Source: a virus. Taken from it: a stretch of DNA of 64,000 nucleotides. This document shows, piece by piece, positions 46,460-63,126 of this stretch (the stretch's first letter is position 1; each line of letters opens with the position of its first letter). Both the position numbers and the translations under genes were made by a program. The notes beneath the pieces were generated by a model that had not been told where the DNA came from, did not search any database, and saw only the letters and a list, made by a program, of their open reading frames with translations. The stretch is from positions 1 through 64,000 of IMG/VR virus record IMGVR_UViG_3300028794_000198, one strand, 5' to 3'.

Positions 46460-46461
46460 GG

Positions 46462-47434: not shown

Positions 47435-47440
47435 GTGCTC

Positions 47441-47934: not shown

Positions 47935-48009
47935 GTCGATCTCCTCAGGCGGCAAGTCGGGCGACGGTTCGGTGGTGGAGCCCGGCCTCGAAAGGCCGGG
48001 CGGGGCGGG

Positions 48010-48333
48010 TCAGGACAGTTCGGTGAAGCACAGCCAGGCGGCCCGGTCCCGGCCGCTGTAGCCGAGGGCCTGGATCGCGTGCGCGAGTTGGACGTCCCAG
48101 CCGGCCTGCTGCTCCGGGGAGATGCCCGCCGCGCTCCGGTACTCGCCGGGCTCGACCTCCTTGCTGTAGGCGACCAGGAAGATCTGCTCACCCTGGTTGG
48201 AGCCGCCGGCCGCAGAGTGCACGTCGGGGCACCGGTCCTTGATCGTGTCCAGGACTTCGTCGATCCGTTCGGCCTCATCGGCGTCGGAGCCGACGTGCAG
48301 GCCGTAGGCGAGGAATGCGGTGTTCGTGTCCAC
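48010..48333 (-). CDS. hypothetical protein
   Basis: AFLAYG...VEPGE. Confidence 0.6.
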   Translation of the reverse strand: MDTNTAFLAYGLHVGSDADEAERIDEVLDTIKDRCPDVHSAAGGSNQGEQIFLVAYSKEVEPGEYRSAAGISPEQQAGWDVQLAHAIQALGYSGRDRAAWLCFTELS

Positions 48334-48388
48334 GGGGAGACCTTTCGTCGCGGGGCCGGACTGATTCGGGCGCAAGGGTGTTGCGTTG

Positions 48389-48422
48389 CGTAGGGGGCCC
48401 GGGTTGTCCCGGGCCCCCTACG
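48389..48422. terminator. perfect stem-loop
   Basis: CGTAGGGGGCCCGGG-TTGT-CCCGGGCCCCCTACG. Confidence 0.6.
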
Positions 48423-48429
48423 GTTCGAT

Positions 48430-48621
48430 CTAGCCCATCATCCGGCGCCACACCGAGACGGTCTCCTCGTCGCCGCTGATGTTGAATTCGACCTTCCCGT
48501 TGTCTTGGATCTTGGTCGATACGCTGAGCCCGCCCTCCCGGAGTGCGTCGCGGTTCTCCTTGAGGGTGGTGCCGCGCAGGTCTTCGGTCGTGCGGGTGAA
48601 GCTGAACCGGCTCTTCGCCAT
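48430..48621 (-). CDS. small hypothetical protein
   Basis: AGGGAG RBS; consensus promoter upstream. Confidence 0.65.
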   Translation of the reverse strand: MAKSRFSFTRTTEDLRGTTLKENRDALREGGLSVSTKIQDNGKVEFNISGDEETVSVWRRMMG

Positions 48622-48664
48622 GTGAACTCCCTGTTGAGGTGTCGTTCCGTCTTGCGATACCTCA

Positions 48665-48734
48665 AATATAGTGGGTACCCATCAATACGTCAAGTGGGTA
48701 CCCACTAGATCTTTTCATGGGTACCCACTACACT
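48665..48734. promoter_or_regulatory. divergent promoters with three palindromic operators TGGGTACCCA
   Basis: Operator centres at 48676/7, 48699/700 and 48722/3 (23-bp period). Leftward TTGACG-17-TATATT; rightward -10 TACACT 6 nt before ATG 48741. Confidence 0.8.
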
Positions 48735-48740
48735 CGACAC

Positions 48741-49016
48741 ATGGACACTCCACCCAAGCCGTTTCAGCAGCTCACCGCCCTCGCCGGCTCCGAGAGCATC
48801 GAGCGCGCCCAGGCCCTGACCGAGGCGTTGAAGGCCATCCCTGACCTTCAACACTGGCTGCGGGAGCAGCGCCAGCACGTCGTCCGCACCCTCCATGAGC
48901 GGGACGGAATCAGCTACACCGACATGGCGCCCGCCCTCGGGGTCAAGCCTGAGCGCGTGTCAGGCATTGCCCGTGGCCACAGCCGTTCATCAAGGAAGGG
49001 CAGCGCCGAGGGCTGA
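48741..49016 (+). CDS. small HTH regulator
   Basis: GISYTDMAPALGVKPERVSGIARG; leaderless. Confidence 0.8.
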   Translation: MDTPPKPFQQLTALAGSESIERAQALTEALKAIPDLQHWLREQRQHVVRTLHERDGISYTDMAPALGVKPERVSGIARGHSRSSRKGSAEG

Positions 49017-49052
49017 CCGGCGCCCGGTGGATGGCCCGCGCCGCACCCGACA

Positions 49053-49092
49053 CGCAAGCCCCGACCGGAGACGATCCCGGTCGGGGCTTGCG
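49053..49092. terminator. stem-loop between convergent genes
   Basis: CGCAAGCCCCGACCGG...CCGGTCGGGGCTTGCG. Confidence 0.65.
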
Positions 49093-49106
49093 AGTGCCCG
49101 GGCAGG

Positions 49107-49646
49107 TCACCGCTGGTTGATGTTCTTGACCCAGACGGCCCGGGTGTTGGTGGTGCGGTGCTCGTGATATTCGGGCCCGTTGTGGTGGTGCACGTCGGGC
49201 ACGACAGCCCGCTTGGCCTTGCCGATGGCACCCCCGACGGCGGTCACGACCATGGCGAAACCGGCGAACGGGAGGGCAACGGTCAGAACACCGGCCAGGG
49301 TCACGGTGGACAGGCTGTGGATAACCGACGACAGGCCCTTGCAGGCGAGCCAGACCGCACAGCCGAGGCCGATGGATCCGACACCGACTCCGATGGAGCC
49401 GACGGCGATTCCGAGCGCCCAGGCGGGCACGATCCGGCTGTCGGGCTGCGGGACGGGCGGGGTGGTGCCAACGCGAGGCCCGTCCTCGAATGACGGGATG
49501 CTCTCGTCGTCGACGCGGACGGCGGTGGGCTTGTCGGTGCCGATCTCGTCGAGGGCTGCGAAGAGGCGGCGGATGTTGTCGCGGTCGGCTTGCGTGGCCT
49601 GCCCGGCCGCGGCGGCGGTGGGCGTCGGCTCGGGCAGGTCGAGCAT
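49107..49646 (-). CDS. SpdD-like 2-TM protein
   Basis: Pro-rich N-terminus, 2 TMs, C-terminal HHHNGP..H; downstream of traB. Confidence 0.6.
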   Translation of the reverse strand: MLDLPEPTPTAAAAGQATQADRDNIRRLFAALDEIGTDKPTAVRVDDESIPSFEDGPRVGTTPPVPQPDSRIVPAWALGIAVGSIGVGVGSIGLGCAVWLACKGLSSVIHSLSTVTLAGVLTVALPFAGFAMVVTAVGGAIGKAKRAVVPDVHHHNGPEYHEHRTTNTRAVWVKNINQR

Positions 49647-49672
49647 GGGGTGAGGTCTCCTTCGGGTAGTGG

Positions 49673-50320
49673 TTACGGGGTGGCAGCCTTGGCGGTCGCC
49701 TTGGCCGGCTTCTTGCGGGTGCTGGTCTTGGGTGCGGGTGTGGGCGGCGACGGGGCCATGGCGGCTGCGGCGGTCTGCTGCGCGTACCACTTGCCGCCGA
49801 CGCTCGCCCCGCCGTGCACCTGCTTCTCGTGGGCCCGCAAGGCGCTGGTGGCCTTCTTGGCGTCCTGGAAGCGGGGCTTCACCTTCTTGCCGCAGGGGCA
49901 GCTCCAGCCGATCAGGCCGGAGCCTTTGTCGGCACCGAACCGGCTCGCCTTGTAGACGGCCCACTTGCTGGCCGTGGCCTTGGTGCCCTTCGCGGGGCAG
50001 GGCTTGGATCCGGTGAGGGTTCCGTCCTTGGCCCGGGTGGCGATCTGTCCGTTGCCGTGGCAGGTGGTGCAGTTCTCGTGGGTGATGCGGCGGATGGCCG
50101 CGGCCTTGCGGGAGGTGGTCACGTCGCGGTGGGTGTCGACCATGGGGGCGATGACCCGCAGCACCAGCCAGGTGCCGAGGCGGGCGTGGAGCGGGCCGCT
50201 GCGCGGGATTTTGACCCGCCGGGCGGGATGCGTGCGCCGGACGGCGGTCGCGGTGGTGCGGCGGCGCGCCGGGGCCTTGCGGCGGGCGGTCGGCCGCCTT
50301 GCGGAACGCTTCGCTGCCAT
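49673..50320 (-). CDS. basic Zn-finger protein of the transfer region
   Basis: CTTCHG.G, CP, CPCG...H...H; Arg/Lys-rich ends. Confidence 0.7.
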   Translation of the reverse strand: MAAKRSARRPTARRKAPARRRTTATAVRRTHPARRVKIPRSGPLHARLGTWLVLRVIAPMVDTHRDVTTSRKAAAIRRITHENCTTCHGNGQIATRAKDGTLTGSKPCPAKGTKATASKWAVYKASRFGADKGSGLIGWSCPCGKKVKPRFQDAKKATSALRAHEKQVHGGASVGGKWYAQQTAAAAMAPSPPTPAPKTSTRKKPAKATAKAATP

Positions 50321-50361
50321 GATCGGGACTCCTTCTCAAGAACTTCACATATGTGGATCAA

Positions 50362-50504
50362 TAGGGTGTCTATGGGCCGTCTTTGGCCCGACTAAGGCCC
50401 GTCTATGGCCCGGCTACCTGCGGTTCCTCTTGATCGCCCAGTCGGGCCATAGACGGGGTGAAGACGGGGGTTAGGCGGCCCGTAGACGGGCCATAGTCGG
50501 GCCC
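50362..50504. repeat. clt-like locus: two inverted arrays of an 11-bp unit (consensus TAGACGGGCCA)
   Basis: 5 reverse units at 50362-50416 and 6 forward units at 50439-50504, overlapping the 3' end of traB. Confidence 0.85.
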
Positions 50505-52570
50505 AACAGGCCTGCGGCGGCCTGCTCAACAGACTCTCGGGACCAGCCGCGGACCTGCGCCCGGCCATCCCACTCCTGACGGATCGCCGTCACCGACGGG
50601 GCATGCTTCCGAAGCAGCTGAGAGAGGCCGTTGGCGTCCATCTGCACGCCCGCCTCGCCGAGCGCGGGGAGCAGTTCCTCGGTCGTCGGCAGGAACGTCT
50701 TCGCGCCGAACGCCCGCAGCAGAACGGCGACCGTCGCCGCATCCTCCACACCGCCCTGCTCGTCGAGAGCGACGAGGCGGTCGGCCAGGGACGCTTCGCC
50801 CGCCGCACCATCGCGGCGGATCACGTGCAGCAGGTTGGCGGCGGCGAGGCTGGCGTGGTCGAACCAGGGACGTCCGGCGTCCTTGCGGTCCTTGACGGCC
50901 TGCCGAATCTGGTCACGCTCGAACCGGTTCCACCGCCACAGCACGGGCCGGTCGAAGCCAGGGCCAGCGATGTAGAACTTGCCGGCGTCGTAGACCCGCT
51001 CGTCGTCGACGGCCGGACGCAGCCGGTCGGGACGGTATCCCGCCGCGGAGGCCCCCTTACCCAGGACAAGGGGGATGTCCTCGCTGCGCGCGGCGAGCAT
51101 CACCCGGTAGGTGACGGCGCTGGCGATGGCGTCACCGAGGGAGTCTTGTGTGGCTTCCTGGGCGGCGAAGAGGAGGTAGACGCCGGTCTCGCGGCCGATG
51201 CGGAGGATCTCGATGGCGAGTTCCTTGGCTTCCTTGGGTAGGAAGATGAACTCGTCGATCAGGCCGAAGATGGCGGGCTCTTCGGGGGTGGGCTCCCACA
51301 GGTCGCCCATCTCCTTGGCCGACTTGACCTGATTGCGGGCCGAGGCGATGTCGCGCAGCCAGCGCAGCTTCTCCGTGCACTCCTTCGGTCCACGGATCGG
51401 CGGCAGCGCCATGACCTCGGAGAACTCGCGGATTCCGTCCTTGACCGGGTCCATCTCGATGGCGATGGCGTCCCGGCATGCGGTGATGACCTCGGCGAGG
51501 CAGCGCAGCGCCCCCTTCGTCTTCGCCGACCCGGACGAACCGATGACCATCATGAACATTCCGCGCAGGCGCATCTCCAGCAAGGTGCCGTCCATGCAGC
51601 GGCCGTACACCACCGCATCCTTCACCGACAGGCTGTTCGGCGAGTGCACCGACGGCCGGGGCATGTCGGCGAACGGATCCGACTGCACGAGACGCAGCGT
51701 GAGGTGGGAGTTGTCCTCCGGGTCCGGCTCGCACAGGGTCTGCCCCTTGCCGATGCCGAAGTGGGAGTCCAGCTTGCTCATTACGGCGTTGACCTGCTCC
51801 GGCGCCGCCCCCTTGAGGACGACGTCGATCTCCCAGCCCCAGCCACGGTAGCCGAGCACGCGCACCGCGCGGGTGTCGATGCCCTCCCAGGCGAGCGCCC
51901 GGGTGACGCACTGCTCGACCTTGTCCGGCGACTGCGCAACCGCGAGCGGGAACGGCTCGTCGCTGGTCGGGTCGTCCTGCTCGGCGACGATCTGCTCGGG
52001 CGCAAGGCCGGTGTTGTTGAGCCGGTAGCGCCCGTACCAGGTGACGGCGGAGGCCACGGACAGGGCGAGCACGCCTGGCGTGATCCACCACGAGTCCGCG
52101 GCGGTCATGCCCGCTTCGGCGACGAGCGCCCACCAGCCGGCGAGGTTGAGTGCGGCCAGCGCGCCGGCGCCCCAGCCGAGGAACTTCCAGCGCCGGTGGC
52201 GGATCTCGGTGTTGCGGCGCCAGTCGGTCGACGAGGTGACGCCGCCGATCGCCTCCTGATAGTCGTGGGAGCGCAGGTACCGCCAGCCGAGGAAGGAGAC
52301 AGCGCCGGCGCCGGCGCCGAACCAGCGAGCCGCCGTCCAACTGCCGCGCACCGACAGGCCGACAGCGCGCCCGGTGGTCTTGGCGACGACCATGGCCGCG
52401 CTGCCGGTCTTCCGCAGTACCGGGTAGGCCGGCTCGTAGGGCAGGAGGACGCCAGGCGCGATGTCGTCGTCGAGTTCCCCGGACAGGTCGTCGGGGACTT
52501 CGAGCTCGCCCGGGATCACCTTCGTCAGGTCCCAGCCGGGCGGGAGTTCCGGGTTCATCTCGAGGCTCAT
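50471..52570 (-). CDS. traB: TraB-like FtsK/SpoIIIE conjugative DNA translocase
   Basis: N-terminal TMs, Walker A GSSGSAKT, MDPVK, Walker B LIDE, RIGRETGVYL..AAQ, C-terminal wHTH. Confidence 0.85.
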   Translation of the reverse strand: MSLEMNPELPPGWDLTKVIPGELEVPDDLSGELDDDIAPGVLLPYEPAYPVLRKTGSAAMVVAKTTGRAVGLSVRGSWTAARWFGAGAGAVSFLGWRYLRSHDYQEAIGGVTSSTDWRRNTEIRHRRWKFLGWGAGALAALNLAGWWALVAEAGMTAADSWWITPGVLALSVASAVTWYGRYRLNNTGLAPEQIVAEQDDPTSDEPFPLAVAQSPDKVEQCVTRALAWEGIDTRAVRVLGYRGWGWEIDVVLKGAAPEQVNAVMSKLDSHFGIGKGQTLCEPDPEDNSHLTLRLVQSDPFADMPRPSVHSPNSLSVKDAVVYGRCMDGTLLEMRLRGMFMMVIGSSGSAKTKGALRCLAEVITACRDAIAIEMDPVKDGIREFSEVMALPPIRGPKECTEKLRWLRDIASARNQVKSAKEMGDLWEPTPEEPAIFGLIDEFIFLPKEAKELAIEILRIGRETGVYLLFAAQEATQDSLGDAIASAVTYRVMLAARSEDIPLVLGKGASAAGYRPDRLRPAVDDERVYDAGKFYIAGPGFDRPVLWRWNRFERDQIRQAVKDRKDAGRPWFDHASLAAANLLHVIRRDGAAGEASLADRLVALDEQGGVEDAATVAVLLRAFGAKTFLPTTEELLPALGEAGVQMDANGLSQLLRKHAPSVTAIRQEWDGRAQVRGWSRESVEQAAAGLLGPTMARLRAA

Positions 52571-53868
52571 GACGGGTCCTTCTGGGTGCTCTGCTCAAGG
52601 CGTGCCTGAGTGCGGGCGATAGGGCTGGGCGGCTGGCTGTCGCCGGCCCGTCGGACGGGCGGAGTGCCGCCGTTGTTGCGGCGCCCGTCGGGGGCGTTCG
52701 GGTCACGCTTGGAGCGGGGACCCTTTTGGGATTCGATCAGCGAGAACTCGCCGAAAACGGGCGCTTCAGTGACGGTCCGCATGTGGGCCTGTGCGGCGCG
52801 CGACTGAGCTTCGATTTCGGGACGGATTCCGACCGTCTTGCAGCCGGTAACGAGGAACCAGGACTCGGCCCAGATCTGGTCCGTGACGAACCTGGAACCG
52901 CGCGCGGAACGGATCGCGTCAGCGACCTGCCACACGTCGCCGTGCGTCGCCTCGCGGTCGGCGTCCTTGCGGGTCTGCTCCTCCTCGGCGGCCTTCTCGC
53001 GGGCCACCCTCTCGGCTGCCGCTTTCGTATCGGCAGCCTGCTTCTCGGCGCGCGCCTTCTCGCGGGCGGCGTCCGCCTGGGCCTTGGCGCGCTCGGCAGC
53101 CCGGCGCTCACGGCCGGATGGGATCCCGTCGACCTTCTGCGCGATGCCGTGCTCGTAGGTCATCAGCACGATCGGTCCACCGAGGGAAGCGATCGCGCCG
53201 ATGATGCCGGCGTTGAGGCCGATCGCCGGGTCGGTCATGCCGCCGTACAGGTTGACGGCTGCGGCGATCACGGCGCCAACCATGATGCCGACGCGGTAGG
53301 GGCGAACGTCGCGCCGGTGGGCAACCGCCCATGCGGCGCCGAACGCGAGGACGAGGGCGAAGCCTTCGAGCAGTGCCGGGGCAGCGATGAGGAACTTGCG
53401 GTGCGGGTCCCAGAAGTGCATGAACTGCACCGGCGCTGCGATCACCAAGCCGACGGCATAGATGCCGCGGGCGCCCCACTTCCACCAGCGCTCCGAACGC
53501 TTCTGCTCCTTGGCGATCCGCACCTCCAGAGCTTCCGCCTCAGCCTCGGCCGCGTCTGCCTTCTCCCGATCCGCTTCGGCCTTGGCGGCTTCGGCGGCCT
53601 TCTTGGCGAGGTAGACGTCGTGGTCGGCCTGCTTCCTCTCCTGGGCCAGGCGGGCTCGCTCGTTGGTGAGCCGTTCTTTTTCGGCTTGTTCGGCGGCGAG
53701 GATCTCGGCAGCCTTCGCCTCGCCTTCAGCCTTGATGCGTAGCGCGTCGGCTTCAGCAGCAGCCCGGGTGCGGATCGCCTCCGCCTCGGCCAGCGCGCGC
53801 GGGTCGAACCGCGGCTCGGGCGAGGCCAGCGGCGAGCCGTTGACCTTCTTCTCGACGGAGGTTGTCAC
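52567..53868 (-). CDS. SpdB/DUF2637-like membrane protein with coiled coils
   Basis: Four-TM core (APALLEG...AAAVN...G...) flanked by Ala/Glu/Lys coiled coils; coupled to traB. Confidence 0.75.
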   Translation of the reverse strand: MTTSVEKKVNGSPLASPEPRFDPRALAEAEAIRTRAAAEADALRIKAEGEAKAAEILAAEQAEKERLTNERARLAQERKQADHDVYLAKKAAEAAKAEADREKADAAEAEAEALEVRIAKEQKRSERWWKWGARGIYAVGLVIAAPVQFMHFWDPHRKFLIAAPALLEGFALVLAFGAAWAVAHRRDVRPYRVGIMVGAVIAAAVNLYGGMTDPAIGLNAGIIGAIASLGGPIVLMTYEHGIAQKVDGIPSGRERRAAERAKAQADAAREKARAEKQAADTKAAAERVAREKAAEEEQTRKDADREATHGDVWQVADAIRSARGSRFVTDQIWAESWFLVTGCKTVGIRPEIEAQSRAAQAHMRTVTEAPVFGEFSLIESQKGPRSKRDPNAPDGRRNNGGTPPVRRAGDSQPPSPIARTQARLEQSTQKDPS

Positions 53869-53886
53869 GATCGGGTCCTTTCGGAT

Positions 53887-54090
53887 TCAGCCGCGCGGGG
53901 CGGCGCGGTGGGCGATGAACGTTGCGGTGGCGTTGGCCGCGCTGTAGGCGGTCGCGTAGAACACGGCGACAGCTGCGGCGACCGTGACGACGGTGGGGGC
54001 GCCGAGCGTGCTGACGGCGGTCAAGGTGACGGAGGCGACCAGGGCGGATGCGACGCCGATCGCAACCAGGACGAGACGGTTCAGGCACAT
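53887..54090 (-). CDS. small 2-TM protein (Spd-like)
   Basis: Hydrophobic; GAGGGG RBS. Confidence 0.55.
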   Translation of the reverse strand: MCLNRLVLVAIGVASALVASVTLTAVSTLGAPTVVTVAAAVAVFYATAYSAANATATFIAHRAAPRG

Positions 54091-54091
54091 G

Positions 54092-54289
54092 TCAGCCCCT
54101 CCCCCGCCGGGTCGTCTTGCGCCAGCCGAAGCCGCCGGGGAGGTTCCACGACGTGGTACGACGGCCGGTCGAACTGCGGGTGTAGTGCGGCGTGTTCTTG
54201 CCGCCCAACGTGATCGACCAGCTGTGCAGGCCGATGTTGACGCGGACACCGGGCAGGACCCGGAAGGACTTGCGGAAGGTGATCGGCAT
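54092..54289 (-). CDS. DUF4236-like protein
   Basis: FRKSFRVLPGVRVNIG..S.S...LPGG. Confidence 0.8.
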   Translation of the reverse strand: MPITFRKSFRVLPGVRVNIGLHSWSITLGGKNTPHYTRSSTGRRTTSWNLPGGFGWRKTTRRGRG

Positions 54290-54567
54290 CAGACCGTCTC
54301 CGATCCGAGCGGCACCGGCGTGAAGCCGACCTCGCCGTCCACCTTGTCCGGGAAGTCAGGGCCCGCGACCTGGTGCGATCGCATCCGGTAAGGGCGCTGC
54401 AGCCGCCACACCATCGGCGTGTAGTCGAAGGCCACGGTGTAACCGTCGGCGGTCGGCCAGTCCAGTTCGGAGGCGGCGCGGACTGCGTCGGTCGGGTCGG
54501 CGGCGCGAACCCACTCGGTGTAGACGCCGGACGGGCGGGTCGGCCAGGTCACGCTGTACTTCTTCAT
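54289..54567 (-). CDS. hypothetical protein
   Basis: GAGGAG RBS. Confidence 0.6.
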   Translation of the reverse strand: MKKYSVTWPTRPSGVYTEWVRAADPTDAVRAASELDWPTADGYTVAFDYTPMVWRLQRPYRMRSHQVAGPDFPDKVDGEVGFTPVPLGSETV

Positions 54568-54602
54568 GCGGTGCTCCTCTCAGGGGTGGGGTCGGGGGCC
54601 GC

Positions 54603-54776
54603 TCAGCCGCCGATTTCCTTCAGGTAGGCCTTGGCCTCGCTCTTCGAGACCTCCAGGCAGGTGGCGACGATCGTTGCGTCGGCGTCGGGGTTGACCTCCC
54701 GGATCGCCTCGATGCGGCGGATGTGCTCGTCGTGCCGGACCGGGTTCTGCGGCACGTTGCGGTTGAACAGGCCCAT
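54603..54776 (-). CDS. small HTH-like protein
   Basis: MGLFNRN...ATIVATCLEVSKSEAKAYL; below the ORF-track cutoff. Confidence 0.55.
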   Translation of the reverse strand: MGLFNRNVPQNPVRHDEHIRRIEAIREVNPDADATIVATCLEVSKSEAKAYLKEIGG

Positions 54777-54788
54777 ATCGGGTTCCTC

Positions 54789-55085
54789 TCAGGCGGGCGC
54801 GCCGGTGCGCGCCTTGTGGAATTCGCGGATGAACTCGTCGGTGAGCCCGGCGCCGAGTGCGGCCCCGACCGGGCCGATCCCGGTCACGTCAGCGGCCCAC
54901 AGCTCCAGCCACGCCATACGGGTGGCGGCGTAGTTGATGACCGGGCGCATGCAGCGGATCGCGAACACGACCGCCCCGAGCGCGCACATGACGGTCAGGG
55001 CGAGGGCCCGCAGCGCCCACCGGCCCGCGAACCGGGCAGCGAGATGCAGCCGACCGGGCTTCGCGGTGATCAGGTACGGGCGCAT
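54789..55085 (-). CDS. small membrane protein
   Basis: GAGGAG RBS; one TM. Confidence 0.55.
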   Translation of the reverse strand: MRPYLITAKPGRLHLAARFAGRWALRALALTVMCALGAVVFAIRCMRPVINYAATRMAWLELWAADVTGIGPVGAALGAGLTDEFIREFHKARTGAPA

Positions 55086-55102
55086 GCGGACTCCTCTCGG
55101 GG

Positions 55103-55615
55103 TCAGGCGATGGTGTGGATGGGTGCGCGCCGGGCCACACGAACGGGTCCGGCGGCGGGGTTGAGGTGGGCGGCGAGGCGCTCCAGTTCGCAGGCCTGGG
55201 CTTCGCCGTCGTCCCACTGCGCGTCGTACTGCTCCAGCTCGGCGGCCGGGAGCCGGGACAAGGCTTCTTCGGTGCGGAACTTTTCGACCCGCCGCACGCC
55301 CGGTCGCAGCATCTGCGCGGCGTGCACGAGTTCGTGAATGACGGTCTTGTCGACCTCGGACGCGTCGTAGAGGTGGGCTTGGGCGTTGACGACGGCGAGG
55401 ACCCGGTCGAGGCCGTACAAGGTGCAGCCGTACAGGCCGTCGTCGTCACCGGCGAGGAGGCGGGTGAAGTAGGTGCCGGTGACGAGGAGTTCCACCCCGA
55501 GCAGGCGCACACCCATCTCGCTCTCGACGAGCGCGGCGGCCTGGTCGGCAATGGCGCACACCCGGTCCAGGACTGGGCGTCGGGCCGGGCCGATGGCGTA
55601 GGCGTTGACCTGCAC
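55103..55615 (-). CDS. HEXXH zincin-like protein
   Basis: TVIHELVHAAQ...E.QA..LE. Confidence 0.7.
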   Translation of the reverse strand: MQVNAYAIGPARRPVLDRVCAIADQAAALVESEMGVRLLGVELLVTGTYFTRLLAGDDDGLYGCTLYGLDRVLAVVNAQAHLYDASEVDKTVIHELVHAAQMLRPGVRRVEKFRTEEALSRLPAAELEQYDAQWDDGEAQACELERLAAHLNPAAGPVRVARRAPIHTIA

Positions 55616-55644
55616 GGGGGGCTCCTCTCGGGGTTGGGGGTCGG

Positions 55645-55830
55645 TCAGTTGCCGGGCTTGAGCTCGTCGGCGGTGTAGCCGCGGTAGCCGAGGACGGCCT
55701 CCTTGACGCGCCCGTCGATGCCCTTGACGGCGAGTTCACCGCCGGACTTGGAGCCGTCGTCGACGACCGTGCCGGTCTTGCCCTTCGCGTCGCCGGTGGT
55801 GACGGTGACCTTGTCGCCCTTGCGGAACAT
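55645..55830 (-). CDS. KOW/SH3-like small protein
   Basis: FRKGDKVTVTTGDAKGKTGTV. Confidence 0.7.
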   Translation of the reverse strand: MFRKGDKVTVTTGDAKGKTGTVVDDGSKSGGELAVKGIDGRVKEAVLGYRGYTADELKPGN

Positions 55831-55988
55831 GCGGGACTCCTTCGGTTCGGTGAATGGATGTGCTGGTGCCGGTCGTGCTGGGCGCCGCACCGTGGGGGCG
55901 ATGCGGTCCCCGGCAGGACCAGGGGGTGGAGCCGTGGCGGCGAGGCCGCGGGGGAACGAATCCCACCGCCACGGCGATCAGGGGCCGC

Positions 55989-56135
55989 TCACCAGTACTT
56001 GGCGTCGGCGGGGTCGATCTTCGGCAGCTTCCGGGCCGTCTTGCGCAGGGCGTCCGCTTCACGCTTGGCGCGGGCGACTGCGGCGGGGTCGGGCTTCCGT
56101 GGCGGGGGCGCGTCGTCGCGCTTGCGGCCGAACAT
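55989..56135 (-). CDS. small basic protein
   Basis: MFGRKRDD...DAKYW. Confidence 0.45.
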   Translation of the reverse strand: MFGRKRDDAPPPRKPDPAAVARAKREADALRKTARKLPKIDPADAKYW

Positions 56136-56353
56136 CACAGGTAGCTCCCCGGGTCGGCCGCGACGAGCACCTCGCGCGACAGGTCACCCTGGGCCGGGCC
56201 GACCACACTGTCCGCCTCCAGCAGATCCAGCAGCCGGCAGGCCGTCTGGTAGCCGACTCGGAGACGCCGCTGCAGGCTCGTCACCGACGCGGACTGGAAG
56301 TAGATGACGTGGGTGCGGGCCTCGGCCAGCAGCTCCGGTGTCACGGCGGCCAT
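56135..56353 (-). CDS. stand-alone FtsK gamma (wHTH) domain protein
   Basis: ASVTSLQRRLRVGYQTACRLLDLLEADSVVGP...REVL matches the FtsK-gamma signature. Confidence 0.88.
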   Translation of the reverse strand: MAAVTPELLAEARTHVIYFQSASVTSLQRRLRVGYQTACRLLDLLEADSVVGPAQGDLSREVLVAADPGSYL

Positions 56354-56562
56354 CAGGCAGCTGCCGGGTAGTTGAAGCCGTCGAGCTCGGCAAGCAGGTC
56401 GGCGTCGGCGGCGAGCCGGATCTCCGCCCGACGGGCCTTGCTGGCGGCGGCGTACTCGGTGAACACGTCGGAGATCGACAGGACCGTCGGGACGAGCACC
56501 AGGGCGCGGTCGGCGCCGCCCGTCAACGTGGCGTGATCGGCGGAGAGCAGGAAGGGGGACAT
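56353..56562 (-). CDS. hypothetical protein
   Basis: Coupled ORF. Confidence 0.5.
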   Translation of the reverse strand: MSPFLLSADHATLTGGADRALVLVPTVLSISDVFTEYAAASKARRAEIRLAADADLLAELDGFNYPAAA

Positions 56563-56609
56563 GGCGGGGGACCTTTCAGGTCGCAGAGAACGTGGAAGGG
56601 GGGCGGGGG

Positions 56610-56870
56610 TCAGGCGGTGCGGCGGCTGGGCAGCCACAGGCGGCGCTTGGGCTCGGGCTCGACGGGCGCGACCGCCTTCGGCTGCTGCAAGGCGTCGGCG
56701 ATCCGGGCGAGCTGGATGTTGGTGGCCTGCTGCTCGGAGACCAGCGCGAGCAGGGCGTACAGGACGGCCTGCTGCTCGCCTTCCGTGCTGGTGATGCGGA
56801 GGCCATGACCGTCCCTGCCGTCGAGGCGGCGCCGCACGGTGGTCAGGTGCTGCTCGGTGGTTCCGGACAT
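56610..56870 (-). CDS. hypothetical protein
   Basis: GGGAG RBS. Confidence 0.55.
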   Translation of the reverse strand: MSGTTEQHLTTVRRRLDGRDGHGLRITSTEGEQQAVLYALLALVSEQQATNIQLARIADALQQPKAVAPVEPEPKRRLWLPSRRTA

Positions 56871-57030
56871 GAGGGGACTCCCATTGGTGGGGCGAAGGTG
56901 GATGCCACGGCGGCGGGACGGGGGGATTGTCGAACCGCCGCCGTGGCGGTCTAGGGGTTAGGCCTTCGGCCGGGTCTCGGACTCCCGGTTGGCCTTGGCG
57001 ACCTTCCGGGAGAGTTCGGCGCGCTCTGAG

Positions 57031-57210
57031 TCAGTCACCGGACTCACCGTCCGGCAGGAACTTGCCGCCGTCGCGGTGCGCATAGCTGACGTAGACGCCT
57101 TTTACGAGTGGGGCGCGGACGATGGCCATCAAGTCATCAGGCCAATAGCCGAGGAACACCTCGTCCACGCTGGCCGCCAACTCCTCCTCCGGCGACGGGT
57201 CGGCAGTCAC
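57031..57210 (-). CDS. hypothetical protein
   Basis: GTGA overlap; VTADPSPEEELAA... Confidence 0.45.
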   Translation of the reverse strand: MTADPSPEEELAASVDEVFLGYWPDDLMAIVRAPLVKGVYVSYAHRDGGKFLPDGESGD

Positions 57211-57401
57211 GGCGCCACCACCGTCAACTGCGGGGTGCCAACCTTGTAGGCGACGAAGCCGGTGGCGAGCCGCTGCCCGGTCGCAGCGTCGGCGACCGCG
57301 ATCCGCAGCAGCGGGCCGCCGTCGAGAGGCTCGGCAATCGCGCCGATCACCTCGTCGGCCTTCGCCTGCGCCGCCGTCAGGCGTGCCAGGTCGGCGGTCA
57401 C
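57207..57401 (-). CDS. hypothetical protein
   Basis: VTADLARLTAAQAKADEVI... Confidence 0.55.
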   Translation of the reverse strand: MTADLARLTAAQAKADEVIGAIAEPLDGGPLLRIAVADAATGQRLATGFVAYKVGTPQLTVVAP

Positions 57402-57571
57402 GACTCGGCCTCGACGTCCGGGACGACGACCAGGAAGCGGTCGGTACGGATGTCCTGCACGACGGTCGCCGGGACGCCCTGGTCGCGGAACTGCTTCGCC
57501 TGCTCCTCCGCGGGCCAGGAGCCGCGCGGGTGGGAGGCCGGCGAGGTGGCGAGAACCTTGCGGCCGGTCAC
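57398..57571 (-). CDS. hypothetical protein
   Basis: PRGSWPAEEQA...FLVVV. Confidence 0.55.
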   Translation of the reverse strand: MTGRKVLATSPASHPRGSWPAEEQAKQFRDQGVPATVVQDIRTDRFLVVVPDVEAES

Positions 57572-57768
57572 GACGCACCGTCCTCGGTGAGGATGAACGT
57601 CGCGGACTTGAGGTCACCGAACGCGCTGGCCCGCTCGCGGCCGAGCTGCGTGTGCTCAGCCGCCGTAGTGGCGGACTCGGTTCGATCGGCGATGTCGGTG
57701 ATGCGACCGCGGGCATCGGCCTGAAGCGTGGCCGCGGCGGCGATGTCCTTCTTGCTGAAGCAGCCCAT
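57568..57768 (-). CDS. hypothetical protein
   Basis: MGCFSKKDIAAA... Confidence 0.5.
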   Translation of the reverse strand: MGCFSKKDIAAAATLQADARGRITDIADRTESATTAAEHTQLGRERASAFGDLKSATFILTEDGAS

Positions 57769-58133
57769 CACGCACCTGCCGTCTGCGGGTGCGGGCCGCG
57801 GGGACGCTGCGGGAGGCGCGGCTCGTTCGCTTTGGCGTGGTCGTCGGAGGCGACGAGGTGCAGCAGACCGGCGTCGGCGAGGGTAGCGCGGGAGCCGGCC
57901 ATCAGCTCCTCGGCGAACTCCCACGAACGGACATCCAGCGCGGGCAGACCGTTGCCGGTTGCAGCCTTCGCCGCCAGCTCGGCAGCGTGCAGGGCGGCCG
58001 ACTCGTAGCGGGTCACCGCATCGACAACCGGCTTCGGGAAGGCGAGACGCAACTCCAGGCGGGCCGGAGTGGGGACGGCCGGAGTGGGGAGCGGTGCGGT
58101 GGGGGTGTGCGGGGAAGTGCTGGTGGCGGCCAT
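57768..58133 (-). CDS. hypothetical protein, first gene of the Kor-controlled operon
   Basis: GAAGGA RBS; ...LADAGLLHLV. Confidence 0.6.
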   Translation of the reverse strand: MAATSTSPHTPTAPLPTPAVPTPARLELRLAFPKPVVDAVTRYESAALHAAELAAKAATGNGLPALDVRSWEFAEELMAGSRATLADAGLLHLVASDDHAKANEPRLPQRPRGPHPQTAGA

Positions 58134-58215
58134 GAGCGGTGTTCCTTCCTCTGGTCGTAAGTCGCACAAAACGGTGTGGCCGCCATTTCGTCGGCCTTCC
58201 GGCGATGCGATACTG

Positions 58216-58277
58216 ACGGTAGACCGGTGGTCCACCGGTGTCAACCAGTTGACCGGAGGGAGAACCGTCCCTATGGT
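58216..58277. promoter_or_regulatory. back-to-back promoters with a palindromic operator
   Basis: Leftward TTGACA-17-TACCGT with ACCGGTGG-T-CCACCGGT (58223-58239) in the spacer; rightward TTGACC-17-TATGGT. Confidence 0.8.
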
Positions 58278-58311
58278 CAAGAGACATCCAGCGAAAGGAG
58301 AGGAAGGAGCG

Positions 58312-59031
58312 ATGCTTGGATACGCCGAAATCGCCGCACACTTCAGGAGGCAGATCACCGACGGGGAGCTCAATCCCGGAGATGCGATGCCGTCCTATAC
58401 GGAGGCCTCCGACCAGTTCGGGGTGAACCGAACGACGGTGGTCCGCGCCTACGACATCCTCAAATCCGAAGGACTGGTCGCCAGTCGACCCGGAAAGGGA
58501 ACGACCGTCGCCGCCCGCCCCAGCGTCATCATCAGCGGCGTCGACCGGCTTGACCGACTGAGCCGGACTGGTCGACGTTATGGGCCCGGAGAGGACTCGA
58601 CAGGCCACCGTGTGATGTGGCGATCGGCGTATGACGTCGACGTGTGCCGCGCTCTTGAGATCGAACCGGGCGACGAGGTCGTGATCCGCATCCGCACGTT
58701 CCGACAGGACGGACGGGCGACAAGTGTCGGCATCTCGGTCTACCTGCCGCGAACTGTCGCCGAGGTCCAAGAGCTCGCCGAGAGCGAACGGATGGGGCGC
58801 TTCTTCGGTGAGATCTACACCGAACGCACCGGACGCGAAGTCACCAAGGGGCAGCGCACAGCCCATGCTCGGCAAGCCTCGCAGGACGAGATCGATGCCC
58901 TGCAACTCAACGTGCCCGCCCACATGGCGGTGTCCGTCCTCGTCACGAACGTGACCTTCCACGACGAGGAGGGCCCACTCGCCTACTGGGAAGACGTCTA
59001 CGCGCCGGGGGAGAAAATCCCGACCGCGTAG
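58312..59031 (+). CDS. GntR/HutC-family repressor (KorSA/TraR-like)
   Basis: YAEIAAHFRRQI..GEL.PGD.MPS...FGVNRTTV.RA...L.SEGLV..RPGKGT plus UTRA domain; divergent from the transfer operon. Confidence 0.9.
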   Translation: MLGYAEIAAHFRRQITDGELNPGDAMPSYTEASDQFGVNRTTVVRAYDILKSEGLVASRPGKGTTVAARPSVIISGVDRLDRLSRTGRRYGPGEDSTGHRVMWRSAYDVDVCRALEIEPGDEVVIRIRTFRQDGRATSVGISVYLPRTVAEVQELAESERMGRFFGEIYTERTGREVTKGQRTAHARQASQDEIDALQLNVPAHMAVSVLVTNVTFHDEEGPLAYWEDVYAPGEKIPTA

Positions 59032-59129
59032 AACGCGAAAGGCCGAGCGGTTGCACCCGCCCGGCCGTTTCGACCAGCGAGTTGCTGCTCGCTGATCTTC
59101 AACCGTCACTCGCCAGAGAGAAGGTCTCG

Positions 59130-59606
59130 ATGACCACTGTACTGCCCGCCCAGGCCTCTGCCCCCGCGACGTCTGTCACTCCCCCGCCCCGGACGTGGTC
59201 GTTCGTCGACCGCCGCACCGGTGAGGCCGTCGAGTATCGATGCATGGACAACTGCACCCTGGATCATGGCCGCGAGGTGGGGCGCGCCATCTTCCGTGAG
59301 GACGTGTGGTGCTGGACGTGGGCCGAGTCCATGACTCTGCCAGTCAACGAGAACGGAACGCCGGAGGAGATGGCCGTCCTCTCCACCGTCATCAAGGTCG
59401 AGCCGTTCTCCCGAACGATCTCCCAGCGCCTGCCGTATGCGGTCGTCGAGCTGGTCGAGGACCAGTTCATCGAGAACCTCGACCCCGACGGCTACGAGAC
59501 GCTCATCCGCACACTGTCCGACCGCCTCGACCAGATGCGCGCCACGCACCGCCGGCTCGTTGGGATCCGCGCCGCATACATGGCCCGGCAGGTGCGCGCC
59601 GCCTAG
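59130..59606 (+). CDS. DUF6907-like protein
   Basis: C...C..DH...C; LDPDG...L. Confidence 0.65.
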   Translation: MTTVLPAQASAPATSVTPPPRTWSFVDRRTGEAVEYRCMDNCTLDHGREVGRAIFREDVWCWTWAESMTLPVNENGTPEEMAVLSTVIKVEPFSRTISQRLPYAVVELVEDQFIENLDPDGYETLIRTLSDRLDQMRATHRRLVGIRAAYMARQVRAA

Positions 59607-59698
59607 CGCCTTCAGTCCTCCCGCAACCAACCCGCAGGCGGCCCGGCGAGTTCCCATCGTCGGGCCCCGCGTCATCCGCAAACCTGGAGCATAGGTAC

Positions 59699-60400
59699 AT
59701 GCTGATTCACCGCAGGCCAGACCCCGCCGAAGCTGAGGCCGCCCAACGAGCTCTTCTGTTGGATGGGCGTCTGAGCCTTCTGACCGTCGGCGTTCTGATG
59801 AAGATTCTCAATCGCGCCCCCGAGTGGCAGATCAACGCCAAAACATTCCATGCAATGTGCGAGGAGGGGCGTGGCATCGGCGCCGAATCAGCACGCAGCA
59901 TTCGGATGGCGTTCCGCGAGCTCGAAACGATCGGCTACATGCGCCGCACCAAGGGCAAGAAGTCCAACGGCGACTTCTACACGTGGCTTGAGGTGTCCGA
60001 TGTTCCGCACCAGTTCGCACCCTTCAGCCTGGCGGAACAACCGTCGGAGCCGGTCGCAGGCTACGAGCACGGAACGATGCCGACCGAAGGCTTCGTCTAC
60101 ATAATCAGCCCGGCAGAAAGTCGCGTCGTGAAAATCGGCACGACTGTGGATGTGTCGACTCGACTGCGGAGCATGCAGACGTCCAACCCTCAACTGCTCG
60201 TCGCCCGATGGTCGTGCCTAGGGAACGTCGAGCTGGAAAGCTTCCTTCATCGCCGATTCGACCCCATCCGCGTCAAGGGTGAGTGGTTCGATTTCGGCGA
60301 CGGGGATCCCATCGCCGAAGTTTCCGCAGCGGCGGAGTACTTCTACGAGTTGCCGTTTGGCTCCCTGAGTGAACCGGCAGTCGCGACCGAGCCGATCTGA
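59699..60400 (+). CDS. N-terminal wHTH + GIY-YIG (T5orf172-like) domain
   Basis: FRELETIGY; FVYII....VKIGTT....RL..MQTSNP...LE..LH..F...R..GEWF. Confidence 0.8.
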   Translation: MLIHRRPDPAEAEAAQRALLLDGRLSLLTVGVLMKILNRAPEWQINAKTFHAMCEEGRGIGAESARSIRMAFRELETIGYMRRTKGKKSNGDFYTWLEVSDVPHQFAPFSLAEQPSEPVAGYEHGTMPTEGFVYIISPAESRVVKIGTTVDVSTRLRSMQTSNPQLLVARWSCLGNVELESFLHRRFDPIRVKGEWFDFGDGDPIAEVSAAAEYFYELPFGSLSEPAVATEPI

Positions 60401-60460
60401 CGCTCAACACTTCGGCTCCCGCCTCCATCGTTAATACGCGGGGCCGCAGGCCCGGCCTTA

Positions 60461-60772
60461 GTGCGTGCGTGCGCGAGGCGGAAGCGGCAGGCGGGCAAGC
60501 CTGTCGATCATCGACGACGACCACATTTCAACGAGAGGTTCACTGTGGGACTGACGAAGGAGCAGATCGGCAGGCTCGAAGCCGACACCAGGATCGACGG
60601 GTCGGACCGCCGGCTGCTGATGTCGCTGTGCGACTACGACCCGGGGGACGGCTCGGACGACAGTGGATGGGGCGGACTCCGGGTGATGTTCCGAAAGCTG
60701 GAGGCCGCCGGATACCTGACGATCGACGGACTCCACGTTCACGTCCGAGTACTTGAAACGGAGGCGCGATGA
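60461..60772 (+). CDS. small wHTH-like protein
   Basis: FRKLEAAGYL; start uncertain. Confidence 0.45.
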   Translation: MRACARRKRQAGKPVDHRRRPHFNERFTVGLTKEQIGRLEADTRIDGSDRRLLMSLCDYDPGDGSDDSGWGGLRVMFRKLEAAGYLTIDGLHVHVRVLETEAR

Positions 60773-61074
60773 GCAACATCCCGTACACCCACTGGTCGTA
60801 CTTCCCAGACGAGGCCACCGCGCGCCGCTGCGCCCAGGATCTCGCCGACTACATAACCCGCGTCCGTGAGCCGCTGCCGGACAGCACCGACTGGCTGCTG
60901 CTGGCGGGCCGGGACGTCAGCATCGACCACCTCGTAGCGCGCCACCGGGAGGTCGCCGCGATCGTCGAGCGGCACGGCGGCCGGTACGACGGCGGGGAGG
61001 CGGCCTACCTCGGAACGGGCCGGCCGGTCGCGGACCCGATGCTGATCGAGGACGACGACGGGGCCACTACGTGA
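60769..61074 (+). CDS. RraB-like (regulator of ribonuclease activity B) domain protein
   Basis: H.SYFPDEA.A..C...W.L...HGGRYDG. Confidence 0.6.
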   Translation: MSNIPYTHWSYFPDEATARRCAQDLADYITRVREPLPDSTDWLLLAGRDVSIDHLVARHREVAAIVERHGGRYDGGEAAYLGTGRPVADPMLIEDDDGATT

Positions 61075-61454
61075 TCGCCGCCGCGGTCATCACCCACGCG
61101 GCCCGCGTCCTCCTCATCCGCCGCACAACCCCGGAGGCCGCCCTTCTGTGGTCGTTCCCTGCGGGCAAGCTGCACCCCGACGAGTCCCCTGTCGAGGCCG
61201 CTGTCCGCGAGGCCCTGGAAGAGGCGGGCGTGACGGTGGCCCCGCTCCAACTGCTGGGTGAGCGCACGCATCCGGTGACGGGCCTACGCGTCGTCTACAT
61301 CGCCTGCGAGCTGGTCGGTGGCACGGCGCATGCGGCGTCGCCTCGCGAGGTGGCAGAAGTCCGCTGGGCGCGCCTCAGTGAGCTGCCAGGGCTGATCCCT
61401 GGCGGCATCTACGCACCGGTGCAGGCCTTCCTCGAAGGAGTCCTACCGCCGTAG
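61071..61454 (+). CDS. NUDIX hydrolase (Pif-like context)
   Basis: Intact Nudix box GKLHPDESPVEAAVREALEEAG. Confidence 0.92.
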   Translation: MIAAAVITHAARVLLIRRTTPEAALLWSFPAGKLHPDESPVEAAVREALEEAGVTVAPLQLLGERTHPVTGLRVVYIACELVGGTAHAASPREVAEVRWARLSELPGLIPGGIYAPVQAFLEGVLPP

Positions 61455-61547
61455 CTCTCCGCCTCGCCCGCACCATCAGCCCTTCCGTCCCTCACCCATC
61501 CACCCACCCCTAAACTGACCCGGCCGCCGCCGAAAGGACCCTCCCGT

Positions 61548-61937
61548 ATGCGCCCCGCCGACTACCGCGACTACCTCGTCGACCTGCTCAAGAACAGCTC
61601 TGACGTGCAGCGAGTGCAGGTCATCGACTCCGGCAAGCATCCTTACGCCCTGGCCGCGACGGTGGCGGGCAAGGAGCGCCGCTGGCAGGTGATCGGCCAG
61701 CTGGCGGACGGCGCAAAGCACGCGACTCCGACGGCGCCGGTGCACTCAGGCCCGCCCGCGTACACAGCGGCGCCCGCCACTGGCGCGCCGGATGCGTGGC
61801 TGGCCGGTGTGATCGGTGCTGCGGAGCCTGCGGACACGGAGCGGCTTGAGGTGTGGTCGACACGCAAGAAGACGGGCGAGCCCGGGGTGACCGTGCATTT
61901 TCACAACGGCGAGCGCGCCTTCGTGCGCCTCATCTGA
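61548..61937 (+). CDS. hypothetical protein
   Basis: AAGGA RBS; GC3-rich. Confidence 0.7.
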   Translation: MRPADYRDYLVDLLKNSSDVQRVQVIDSGKHPYALAATVAGKERRWQVIGQLADGAKHATPTAPVHSGPPAYTAAPATGAPDAWLAGVIGAAEPADTERLEVWSTRKKTGEPGVTVHFHNGERAFVRLI

Positions 61938-62014
61938 GCCCTTCCTGCGACTGGCCGGCTGCCGCATCGTGGGTCGCGCAGGAAGCACCTCCGCCCGTTG
62001 AAGGAGATCTGCTC

Positions 62015-62164
62015 ATGCGCAACCGTGTCGACCCCACCCAGTGCTCGGCCTCCTGTCCCGTCTGCGGCGCCTACGGCAGCGCAGAGCCCGGCCAGCCGAC
62101 AGCTCAGCATCAGGCTCAGGGCAGCCGCGAGATGTGTCCTGGCAGCGGCCAGCCGGCCGTCTGA
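62015..62164 (+). CDS. small Zn-ribbon protein
   Basis: AAGGAG RBS; CPVCG...H...CPGSG. Confidence 0.6.
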   Translation: MRNRVDPTQCSASCPVCGAYGSAEPGQPTAQHQAQGSREMCPGSGQPAV

Positions 62165-62175
62165 GCGCGCACGCG

Positions 62176-62207
62176 AAAAAGCCCCGCACCATCAGGTGCG
62201 GGGCTTC
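62176..62207. terminator. bidirectional terminator
   Basis: AAAAAGCCCCGCACC-ATCA-GGTGCGGGGCTT between convergent operons. Confidence 0.75.
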
Positions 62208-62226
62208 GCCGTGTCCCGGTTGCCCC

Positions 62227-62505
62227 TCAGTCCTCTTCCGCCGCGTGCGCCAGTTCGTTGGCGAGCCGCTTCAGCGCCCGGTCCGCATTGGCGGGCACTT
62301 CGCGCATGTCTTCGTCGCCGTCTGCAGTGGCTGCTTCGAGGAGGGCGCGGATCGGTGCCCGGAGTTCGAGGACGGCTTCCCGGAGTTCCAGGAGGATCTC
62401 CTGCGCGCTGTCGGCGTCCGCGGGCAGGTCGGTGACGTCGAGTTTGGCGGCGGCGGCGCGGATCTGGGCGGCGAGTTCCTTGCTGAGACGGACGTTGCGG
62501 GGCAT
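62227..62505 (-). CDS. hypothetical protein
   Basis: Helical ORF. Confidence 0.55.
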   Translation of the reverse strand: MPRNVRLSKELAAQIRAAAAKLDVTDLPADADSAQEILLELREAVLELRAPIRALLEAATADGDEDMREVPANADRALKRLANELAHAAEED

Positions 62506-62520
62506 CAGGGCTTCTGTCGG

Positions 62521-62670
62521 TCAGAGGATGTGCAGGAGGGTCCACAGCGCGGCCTTGAGTACCCAGTTGACGAGCGTGAGCATCCCGAGCGCGGCAACGA
62601 TCAGGGCGGCGCCTCGCGGGACGCGGACCTCTTCGTTCAGCCAGTGCGGGTCGCGGTCGGTCACGCTCAC
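62521..62670 (-). CDS. small membrane protein
   Basis: One TM; GTGA overlap. Confidence 0.45.
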   Translation of the reverse strand: MSVTDRDPHWLNEEVRVPRGAALIVAALGMLTLVNWVLKAALWTLLHIL

Positions 62671-63125: not shown

Positions 63126-63126
63126 C

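Follow-up and report, generated by a model that had tools for sequence, protein, structure and literature searches.

The locus analyzed here, a candidate DNA transfer cassette at positions 49107-61454 of a Streptomyces phage genome (the window is the first 64 kb of the 90,048-bp IMG/VR record IMGVR_UViG_3300028794_000198, which originates from a root metagenome), has its closest described counterparts among conjugative plasmids, integrative elements and one plasmid-phage. In the plasmids pSVH1, pIJ101 and pFP1, the gene for a GntR repressor is divergent from the transfer operon, an SpdB2-type gene directly precedes traB, and the clt locus is located at or after the 3' end of traB; the C-termini of the plasmid TraB proteins recognize the clt repeats, the GntR repressor is TraR, and the key protein in spreading is SpdB2 (PMC4447253). 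The pSAM2-type integrative and conjugative elements of actinomycetes (AICEs) combine a KorSA-like GntR protein with an FtsK-like Tra, Spd-type membrane proteins and a Pif-like NUDIX protein (PMC2440964). Phage-borne Spd homologues, in phiC31 and VWB, were noted earlier, and Thoma et al. (2015) raised the possibility that the SpdB2 homologues of phages help phage DNA to spread (PMC4447253); FtsK-like genes, with no tested function, also appear in recent papers on the isolation of Streptomyces phages.

Like the phage analyzed here, pZL12/phiZL12 (GQ919031) is about 90 kb long and carries siphophage late genes; immediately upstream of these, in a similar layout, lies a leftward operon that encodes an FtsK-like protein (71c), a large protein and a membrane protein (72c and 73c) and a NUDIX protein (76c), and is divergent from the GntR gene 80. 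Zhong et al. (2010) reportedly showed that the pZL12 tra locus works and that the virions carry plasmid DNA. In the later literature, this locus is cited as a conjugation locus (PMC3583192), and papers citing pZL12 state that its transfer requires a major tra gene together with adjacent genes. The two translocases, however, are not detectably orthologous (no tblastn match at 1e-3), and the late, early and replication modules of pZL12 differ from those of the phage. The possibility that the genome is pZL12 itself was considered and rejected, only a few genes being common to both.

We regard it as probable, although well short of certain, that the module is a functional cassette of the plasmid type for the transfer and spreading of double-stranded DNA (dsDNA), and that the genome of which it forms part is that of a temperate siphophage with an integrative lifestyle. 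The concept as such is already known from pZL12 (2010), from the remark on phage SpdB2 homologues (2015) and from the FtsK-like genes of Streptomyces phages. What is new here is the complete cassette along with its putative regulation, a TraB clade not orthologous to the translocase of pZL12, an integrative carrier with replication genes of the phage type, and the spread of the cassette across a sizeable phage family, which is apparently widespread.

Gene content and order of the cassette

The bulk of the cassette is a leftward 20-gene operon (Table 1), which opens with small open reading frames (ORFs) chained by 4-bp overlaps, continues with the genes for an FtsK-gamma protein, an HExxH protein, a single-transmembrane (TM) protein, a DUF4236 protein, a two-TM protein, a 433-amino acid (aa) membrane protein (g82) and the 699-aa translocase, and ends, past a 150-bp gap filled with repeats, with the genes for a basic CxxC protein and another membrane protein, followed by a hairpin. 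The repressor gene is divergent from this operon, with a 178-bp gap between the two. The core order (divergent GntR, small genes, DUF2637 protein, then TraB) is identical to that in pFP1 and the NBC_00285 plasmid, and pZL12 is analogous, although the carrier here is a phage and not a plasmid as in pSVH1, pIJ101 and pFP1. The preliminary description of this DNA, made from the sequence alone, had recognized a Streptomyces-type conjugation module consisting of a TraB-like FtsK ATPase, a clt-like repeat locus, SpdB-like membrane genes, a divergent GntR repressor with an operator and a NUDIX gene, with ordinary phage genes on both sides; the domain, fold and profile comparisons given below bear out these assignments.

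The product of the traB-like gene matches phrog_12531 ("FtsK/SpoIIIE-like") with an E-value of 2e-73 and is 31-36% identical to the translocases of 46 Streptomyces and Kitasatospora plasmids (35% over 396 aa in the case of the NBC_00285 plasmid). An AlphaFold (AF2) model built from 42 homologues (predicted local distance difference test, pLDDT, 71.7) combines long helices at the N-terminus with an alpha/beta domain, a RecA-like core and, at the C-terminus, a winged helix (about residues 595-677, helix-helix-strand-helix-helix-hairpin, pLDDT about 83-86); in a Foldseek search with this model, the FtsK motor 2ius was the top match (E 5e-13), ahead of TcpA, a coupling protein of conjugation, and of EssC/EccC. 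The Walker A motif reads GSSGSAKT (residues 344-351; window positions 51520-51545) and the Walker B motif LIDEF; K350, D439 and E440 are invariant across the 42 homologues. The Walker A motif of the clade can be written as GxSGxAK[ST], or more narrowly as GxSG[SA]AK[ST], whereas the plasmids and the distant plasmid-type relatives keep GxxGxGKS. Close homologues come almost entirely from Streptomyces. Public data hold at least 120 translocase clusters (at 90% identity), all at least 52% identical to the TraB-like protein, with several located on 82-95-kb contigs and several others on chromosomes that measure 8 Mb or more.

The gene that directly precedes traB, g82, overlaps the traB start with its stop codon, an arrangement of translational coupling, and its product is organized as described for SpdB2 by Thoma et al., the TM core being preceded by a coiled coil and followed by a C-terminal domain (PMC4447253). 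The g82 protein alone has no Pfam match, but a profile built from 17 positional homologues aligns with the DUF2637 proteins of pFP1 and NBC_00285 over 225 columns (hhalign, 99.6% probability, E 2e-23), and 4 of the 17 relatives match PF10935 (DUF2637) directly. A multi-TM gene of 360-575 aa is located immediately before traB in all 23 loci compared. By sequence and position next to traB, g82 can be assigned to the SpdB2/DUF2637 type.

On the other side of the operon, the GntR/UTRA protein shares 31% identity along its entire length with the GntR protein encoded divergently to the tra operon of pFP1, and 39% with pZL12.80. The divergent layout and the perfect 17-bp palindrome between the genes, the sole such site in the window at up to 3 mismatches, fit a repressor of the TraR/KorA/KorSA kind with its candidate operator. 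The NUDIX gene is on the same strand as the repressor gene and downstream of it; the Nudix box of its product is intact (G-x5-E-x7-REALEEAGV), the protein is 36% identical to the tra-operon NUDIX protein 76c of pZL12, and homologues are present in 6 of the 16 close loci.

The clt-like repeats and the TraB C-terminus

The repeats at the 3' end of traB form two inverted blocks with an 11-bp period, in contrast to the direct 8-bp repeats of plasmid clt loci, and the last units are inside the final traB codons. There are four exact GGCCCGWCTA sites in the 64 kb, all inside the 120 bp that make up this locus. Repeat arrays are present at the 3' end of traB in each of the 23 loci, and the repeat word depends on the type of TraB tail. 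AGACGGG/CCGTCTA occurs with '...QVRGW...AAAGL' tails, CCCGTCC or GACGCC with '...RGWER...ALFAPS', CGAGCAG with '...NPRGYKLEALT', CTGCTCA with '...NPRGFKL' and with one 'NPRGY' variant (L044), and GATCGGC, in eight copies, with a fifth tail type (L046). In most of the loci with 'NPRGY/F' tails and in L046, the observed repeat count is reached by none of the background windows of the respective locus. The loci are kin to one another, and this kinship inflates simple statistics on the co-variation.

The clearest case is a pair of loci, L011 and L013, in which the TraB proteins are about 67% identical to that of this phage over residues 1-571, with a nearly identical N-terminus, whereas the C-terminal domain is swapped and the repeat word of the arrays is swapped along with it. 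Such a pattern would be expected if the winged helix of TraB reads the repeats. Because the repeat motif switches with the type of TraB C-terminus, TraB and the adjacent array appear to be a working pair, and the protein, with its predicted C-terminal winged helix and neighboring clt-like locus, resembles the plasmid TraB proteins in this respect too.

The cassette within the phage replicon

The record is assigned by IMG/VR to the provirus class and is 100% complete according to CheckV. Left of the cassette is a siphophage late module with a 1568-aa tape measure protein, tail proteins, capsid, portal and large terminase (the last four assigned by homology to annotated plasmid and phage records) and an endolysin; right of it are early genes for a replication initiator (phrog_2447), a DnaC-like loader, DnaB, RecT/YqaJ and a clamp-like protein. 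The GC content is 65-72% throughout the record, without a compositional break at the module. We take the carrier to be a temperate integrative tailed phage of Streptomyces of about 90 kb.

The preliminary description had held that the module and the phage are one replicon and that no integrase, Rep or att repeats of its own bound the module. We found no recombinase, excisionase or Rep families in the module genes scanned, no direct repeats flanking the module beyond chance matches, no serine recombinase (PF00239) anywhere in the record, and no match for the 12.3-kb module in a megablast search of phage and plasmid collections. The one recombinase of the record is 47 kb away, and its one Prim-Pol match, at 28.8 kb, adjoins the packaging genes. 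Without int, xis, rep or attP of its own, and in this unlike the pSAM2-type elements, the module cannot be an autonomous AICE; it falls outside the definition of such an element as a bounded unit with its own integrase and att site, a replication gene and Tra.

An assembly chimera is contradicted by independently assembled Logan contigs from the likely source sample, which match 45500-49643 and 49614-64000 exactly, with depths of 16.0 and 16.1, and bridge both borders of the module; a contig from another study bridges 48002-50384. Among the relatives in IMG/VR, G002 (86.6 kb) shows the same gene order as this genome over the entire length, cassette included, and G001 is collinear but inverted. 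A third relative, G003 (93.5 kb, L024-L028), is circularly permuted, and its contig ends are located within the tra operon, where they separate the g88 homologue from that of g90; a break at this place implies that the sequenced molecule was circular or permuted and contained the cassette. G003 also has about 10 kb of extra DNA between the homologues of the right-end and left-end genes, with two more tyrosine recombinase matches and a GntR-like gene.

The terminases of the relatives are only 27-38% identical to that of this phage whereas their TraB proteins are 67-91% identical, so that the cassette travels with different late modules. It is found inside integrated prophages in two complete Streptomyces chromosomes, in G006 between the DnaB region and the terminase and in G007 in a prophage with a different late module; of the 16 close loci from species-representative genomes, 13 have additional genes in common with this phage beyond the cassette. 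Taken together, the equal read depth, bridged borders and collinear relatives support the module as an integral part of the phage replicon, as opposed to a separately excising AICE or a chimera.

We therefore consider it very improbable that the module is a separate mobile element within the prophage, such as an AICE or the remnant of an integrated plasmid, that excises itself or decays as cargo. Its content (GntR, Tra, Spd, NUDIX) does correspond to the core sets of AICEs (PMC2440964), relatives differ in the flank next to GntR and NUDIX, and the Walker A motif is deviant. However, the position of the cassette is the same in chromosomal prophages and in relatives whose late modules differ, and the invariance of the catalytic residues together with the co-variation of TraB and the repeats argues against decay.

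The relation to plasmids requires separate consideration. The preliminary description had given the element a plasmid flavor, with a lox-like resolvase and the suggestion to look for rep and parAB genes, and this flavor is not supported. A search of the record for ParA (PF13614) gave no match, the replication genes are of the phage type (an initiator, a DnaC-like loader and DnaB), and a search for RepAM/DUF3631, likewise without a match, is uninformative because its control was silent too. Given the provirus class, the lack of a ParA match, the phage-type replication genes and the integrated relatives, the sole tyrosine recombinase is more simply interpreted as an integrase. Still, the element could be an extrachromosomal plasmid-prophage similar to pZL12, in which case the provirus label would be wrong and the recombinase would be a multimer resolvase. 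The late module is 55-85% identical to those of circular Streptomyces plasmids of 88-92 kb with ParAB, many TraB homologues are on stand-alone contigs of 82-95 kb, one relative is circularly permuted, and the recombinase has a Xer-like SAM N-domain. Only the late genes, however, are shared with the ParAB plasmids, and members of the family are integrated in two complete chromosomes. Among the attributes of the pZL12-type plasmid-phages, namely late genes, tra, RepA/ParAB and a circular extrachromosomal state, the late genes and tra are present here, although with Tra proteins that are not orthologous, whereas ParA was not found and the record is classed as a provirus; pZL12 is a circular plasmid with ParA/ParB, and we judge the extrachromosomal alternative to be improbable.

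Possible functions of the cassette

We infer repression, DNA binding and conjugal transfer or spreading along the following lines. In the lysogen, the GntR repressor would bind the 17-bp palindrome and silence the 9-kb operon in the Kil-Kor style. Upon derepression, the TraB-like motor, anchored in the membrane as a hexamer, would bind the 11-bp-phased clt repeats via its C-terminal winged helix and then pump the excised, circular dsDNA genome of the phage into a neighboring hypha or compartment. The SpdB2-type protein and the small membrane proteins might form the channel through the septal cross-walls, and the NUDIX protein could act like Pif, damping transfer between cells that already carry the element.

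Several observations weigh against a functional transfer cassette of the plasmid type. The TraB-like protein has no match in Pfam (PF01580 scores 8.6 bits against a cut-off of 24 bits), and the top NCBIfam model, plasmid_TraB NF041214 (E 4e-11), is matched with 42 bits against a cut-off of 800. In 14 of the 15 close loci scored (among L033-L048), an alanine replaces the canonical glycine of GK[ST] in the Walker A motif; we treat this conserved deviation as a peculiarity of the clade rather than as decay, but because of it the ATPase activity of the motor is an assumption. The enrichment of exact 7-mers at the clt-like locus is modest in this genome, being reached by 33 of 247 background windows, so that the clt signal here rests on the phased degenerate arrays and on the comparison of relatives. 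A comparison of the first with the last 3 kb of the genomes G000-G003 yielded no convincing terminal or att-like direct repeats of at least 14 nt. Finally, the translocase homologue occurs alone in 89 Streptomyces phage records, mostly of phages of about 131 kb (32-34% identity, the same family phrog_12531); in Riptide, the one neighborhood inspected, its neighbors are small ORFs and tRNAs, and genes of the GntR, SpdB2 or NUDIX type are absent from the vicinity. We take these 131-kb phages to be lytic phages of cluster BE (for example, NootNoot and Riptide).

The lone translocases make a phage-internal use of the translocase a live alternative. The cassette might serve the infection cycle, with the motor and the Spd-type proteins moving replicating phage DNA across the septal cross-walls in lytic growth or upon induction, so that a single adsorption would give access to many compartments of the hyphae, whereas transfer from a lysogen to a recipient would be absent or negligible. 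Apart from the 89 records, most of which derive from isolation on laboratory hosts, this possibility is in line with the suggestion of Thoma et al. on phage SpdB2 homologues (PMC4447253) and with the placement of the cassette, which separates early from late genes and is transcribed in the direction of both. It fits less well with a GntR gene that has a candidate operator of its own, a likely terminator of its own and a Pif-like NUDIX gene, which is the set-up of plasmids and AICEs and not that of a middle operon of a phage, or with the analogous pZL12 locus, which was reported to mediate conjugal transfer and is cited for conjugation in PMC3583192. We consider this alternative unlikely, albeit the most serious of those discussed here, and the two roles are compatible rather than mutually exclusive.

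Going beyond this locus, we suggest, tentatively and with somewhat more doubt than confidence, that a large family of integrative Streptomyces phages consists of conjugative prophages, which, once excised, would pass from hypha to hypha as double-stranded circles via TraB, clt and SpdB2 and in this way lysogenize or infect recipients, with no need for virions or receptors. Each lineage would have a private specificity of winged helix and repeats, and the lone translocases of the 131-kb phages would be a stripped-down version for spread within the mycelium. A working cassette would give these phages a second, receptor-free route of spread, possibly without virus particles, which would change how host range, phage resistance and the distribution of prophages in Streptomyces are read, and would blur the boundary between prophage, AICE and plasmid. 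The co-varying TraB C-termini and repeats provide swappable specificity pairs for asking how FtsK-like motors choose their DNA. The cassette further suggests a concrete explanation of the FtsK-like genes that are annotated in many Streptomyces phages and so far unaccounted for, and makes the long-suspected virion-independent spread of phages in mycelial bacteria directly testable.

Other features of the cassette and the genome

In the record, 149 genes were called with self-trained codon-usage scoring, nearly all of them leftward; the features of the window discussed here are listed in Table 1.

Table 1 Features of the transfer cassette and of the surrounding phage genome, in window coordinates
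Feature	Position	Strand	Evidence or remark
Tyrosine recombinase	1793-2842		Sole recombinase of the record; Xer-like SAM N-domain
Ro60-like protein, TROVE and vWA domains	3605-5296	-	Domain matches
tRNA-Ser(gct)-like call	5402-5472	-	ARAGORN; adjoins the Ro60-like gene
Endolysin (g14)			Left of the module
Prim-Pol domain protein	28759-29334	-	PF09250, E 5e-9
UDP-glucose/GDP-mannose dehydrogenase and SAM methyltransferase	34068-36100	-	Between packaging genes and tra cassette
Divergent pair g77 (-) and g78 (+)	intergenic 48662-48737		Three copies of the palindrome GTGGGTACCCAC
GC-rich hairpin, 19-bp stem	49050-49095		95% complementary; between convergent g78 and g79
20-gene operon, g98 to g79	49107-58133	-	Codon-usage scoring; many 4-bp start/stop overlaps
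179-aa membrane protein (g79), last operon gene	49107-49646	-	phrog_19266, E 2e-13; 2 predicted TM
215-aa basic protein with CxxC motifs (g80)	49673-50320	-	At 15 of the 16 close loci; downstream of the clt-like locus
clt-like locus, 11-bp units in two inverted arrays	50368-50416 and 50440-50503		Repeat analysis; consensus GGCCCGTCTAT
TraB-like FtsK-fold dsDNA translocase, 699 aa	50471-52570	-	phrog, NCBIfam, predicted fold
SpdB2-type (DUF2637-like) membrane protein (g82), 433 aa	52567-53868	-	3 predicted TM, coiled-coil flanks
67-aa protein, two predicted TM segments	53887-54090	-	TM prediction
DUF4236 small basic protein	54092-54289	-	Pfam DUF4236, E 1e-14; in 8 of 16 close loci
98-aa single-TM protein	54789-55085	-	TM prediction; in 13 of 16 close genome loci
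170-aa protein with HELVH (HExxH) motif	55103-55615	-	Sequence; weak SprT-like and M76 matches; synteny
FtsK-gamma winged-helix protein, stand-alone, 72 aa	56135-56353	-	Pfam FtsK_gamma, E 3e-17
Perfect 17-bp palindrome ACCGGTGGTCCACCGGT, candidate operator	58223-58239		Between divergent promoters; sequence reading
Second palindrome, GTCAAC-CA-GTTGAC	58240-58253		Directly after the candidate operator
Promoter-like site	58249-58277		Abuts the palindrome region
GntR/UTRA (HutC-type) repressor, putative TraR/KorA/KorSA counterpart	58312-59031	+	Pfam GntR, E 4e-18; UTRA, E 2e-8
Four genes between repressor and NUDIX	59244-61074	+	DUF6907; winged helix-turn-helix and T5orf172/MUG113; 75-aa ORF; RraB-like
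NUDIX hydrolase, Pif-like position	61071-61454	+	Pfam NUDIX, E 5e-21

Among the small proteins of the operon, FtsK-gamma is encoded separately, unlike in the Streptomyces conjugative plasmids; in the NBC_00285 plasmid, the translocase itself has a gamma-like stretch fused N-terminally (plasmid homologue locus L029:6987-9578). The HELVH protein, which is 90-92% identical in relatives, is a possible metallopeptidase judging from its motif. TM segments are predicted in g79, g83 and g87, and the basic CxxC protein has only weak matches of the DnaJ-CXXCXGXG kind. A single ORF of 413 aa at 49107-50348 was rejected in favor of two genes, g79 (179 aa) and g80 (215 aa), on account of codon-usage scoring and homology. 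The hairpin past g79, between convergent genes, is likely to be a bidirectional terminator, and was not called in a scan for terminators based on T-tracts. Just downstream of it in relation to the tra operon, the g77/g78 intergenic region looks like a second repressor/operator switch: the three copies of GTGGGTACCCAC overlap a strong promoter-like site, and g78 has a weak match to MarR/helix-turn-helix proteins.

Small genes together with a sugar-modification set occupy about 20 kb between the packaging genes and the cassette; the dehydrogenase and methyltransferase of the set suggest phage-encoded modification of glycans. The gene that comes before that of the large terminase has the Prim-Pol gene directly upstream of it, an odd site for a primase-polymerase. 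No tRNA genes were found near the module, the sole tRNA-like call in the window being the one next to the Ro60-like gene; a Ro-like protein is also encoded by the 131-kb phage Riptide, which itself has an FtsK-like gene. Past the window, among the early genes, are two neighboring C5-cytosine methyltransferase genes (G000 75468-77953), and the product of the first, 75% identical to pZL12.27c, is one of the few shared with pZL12.

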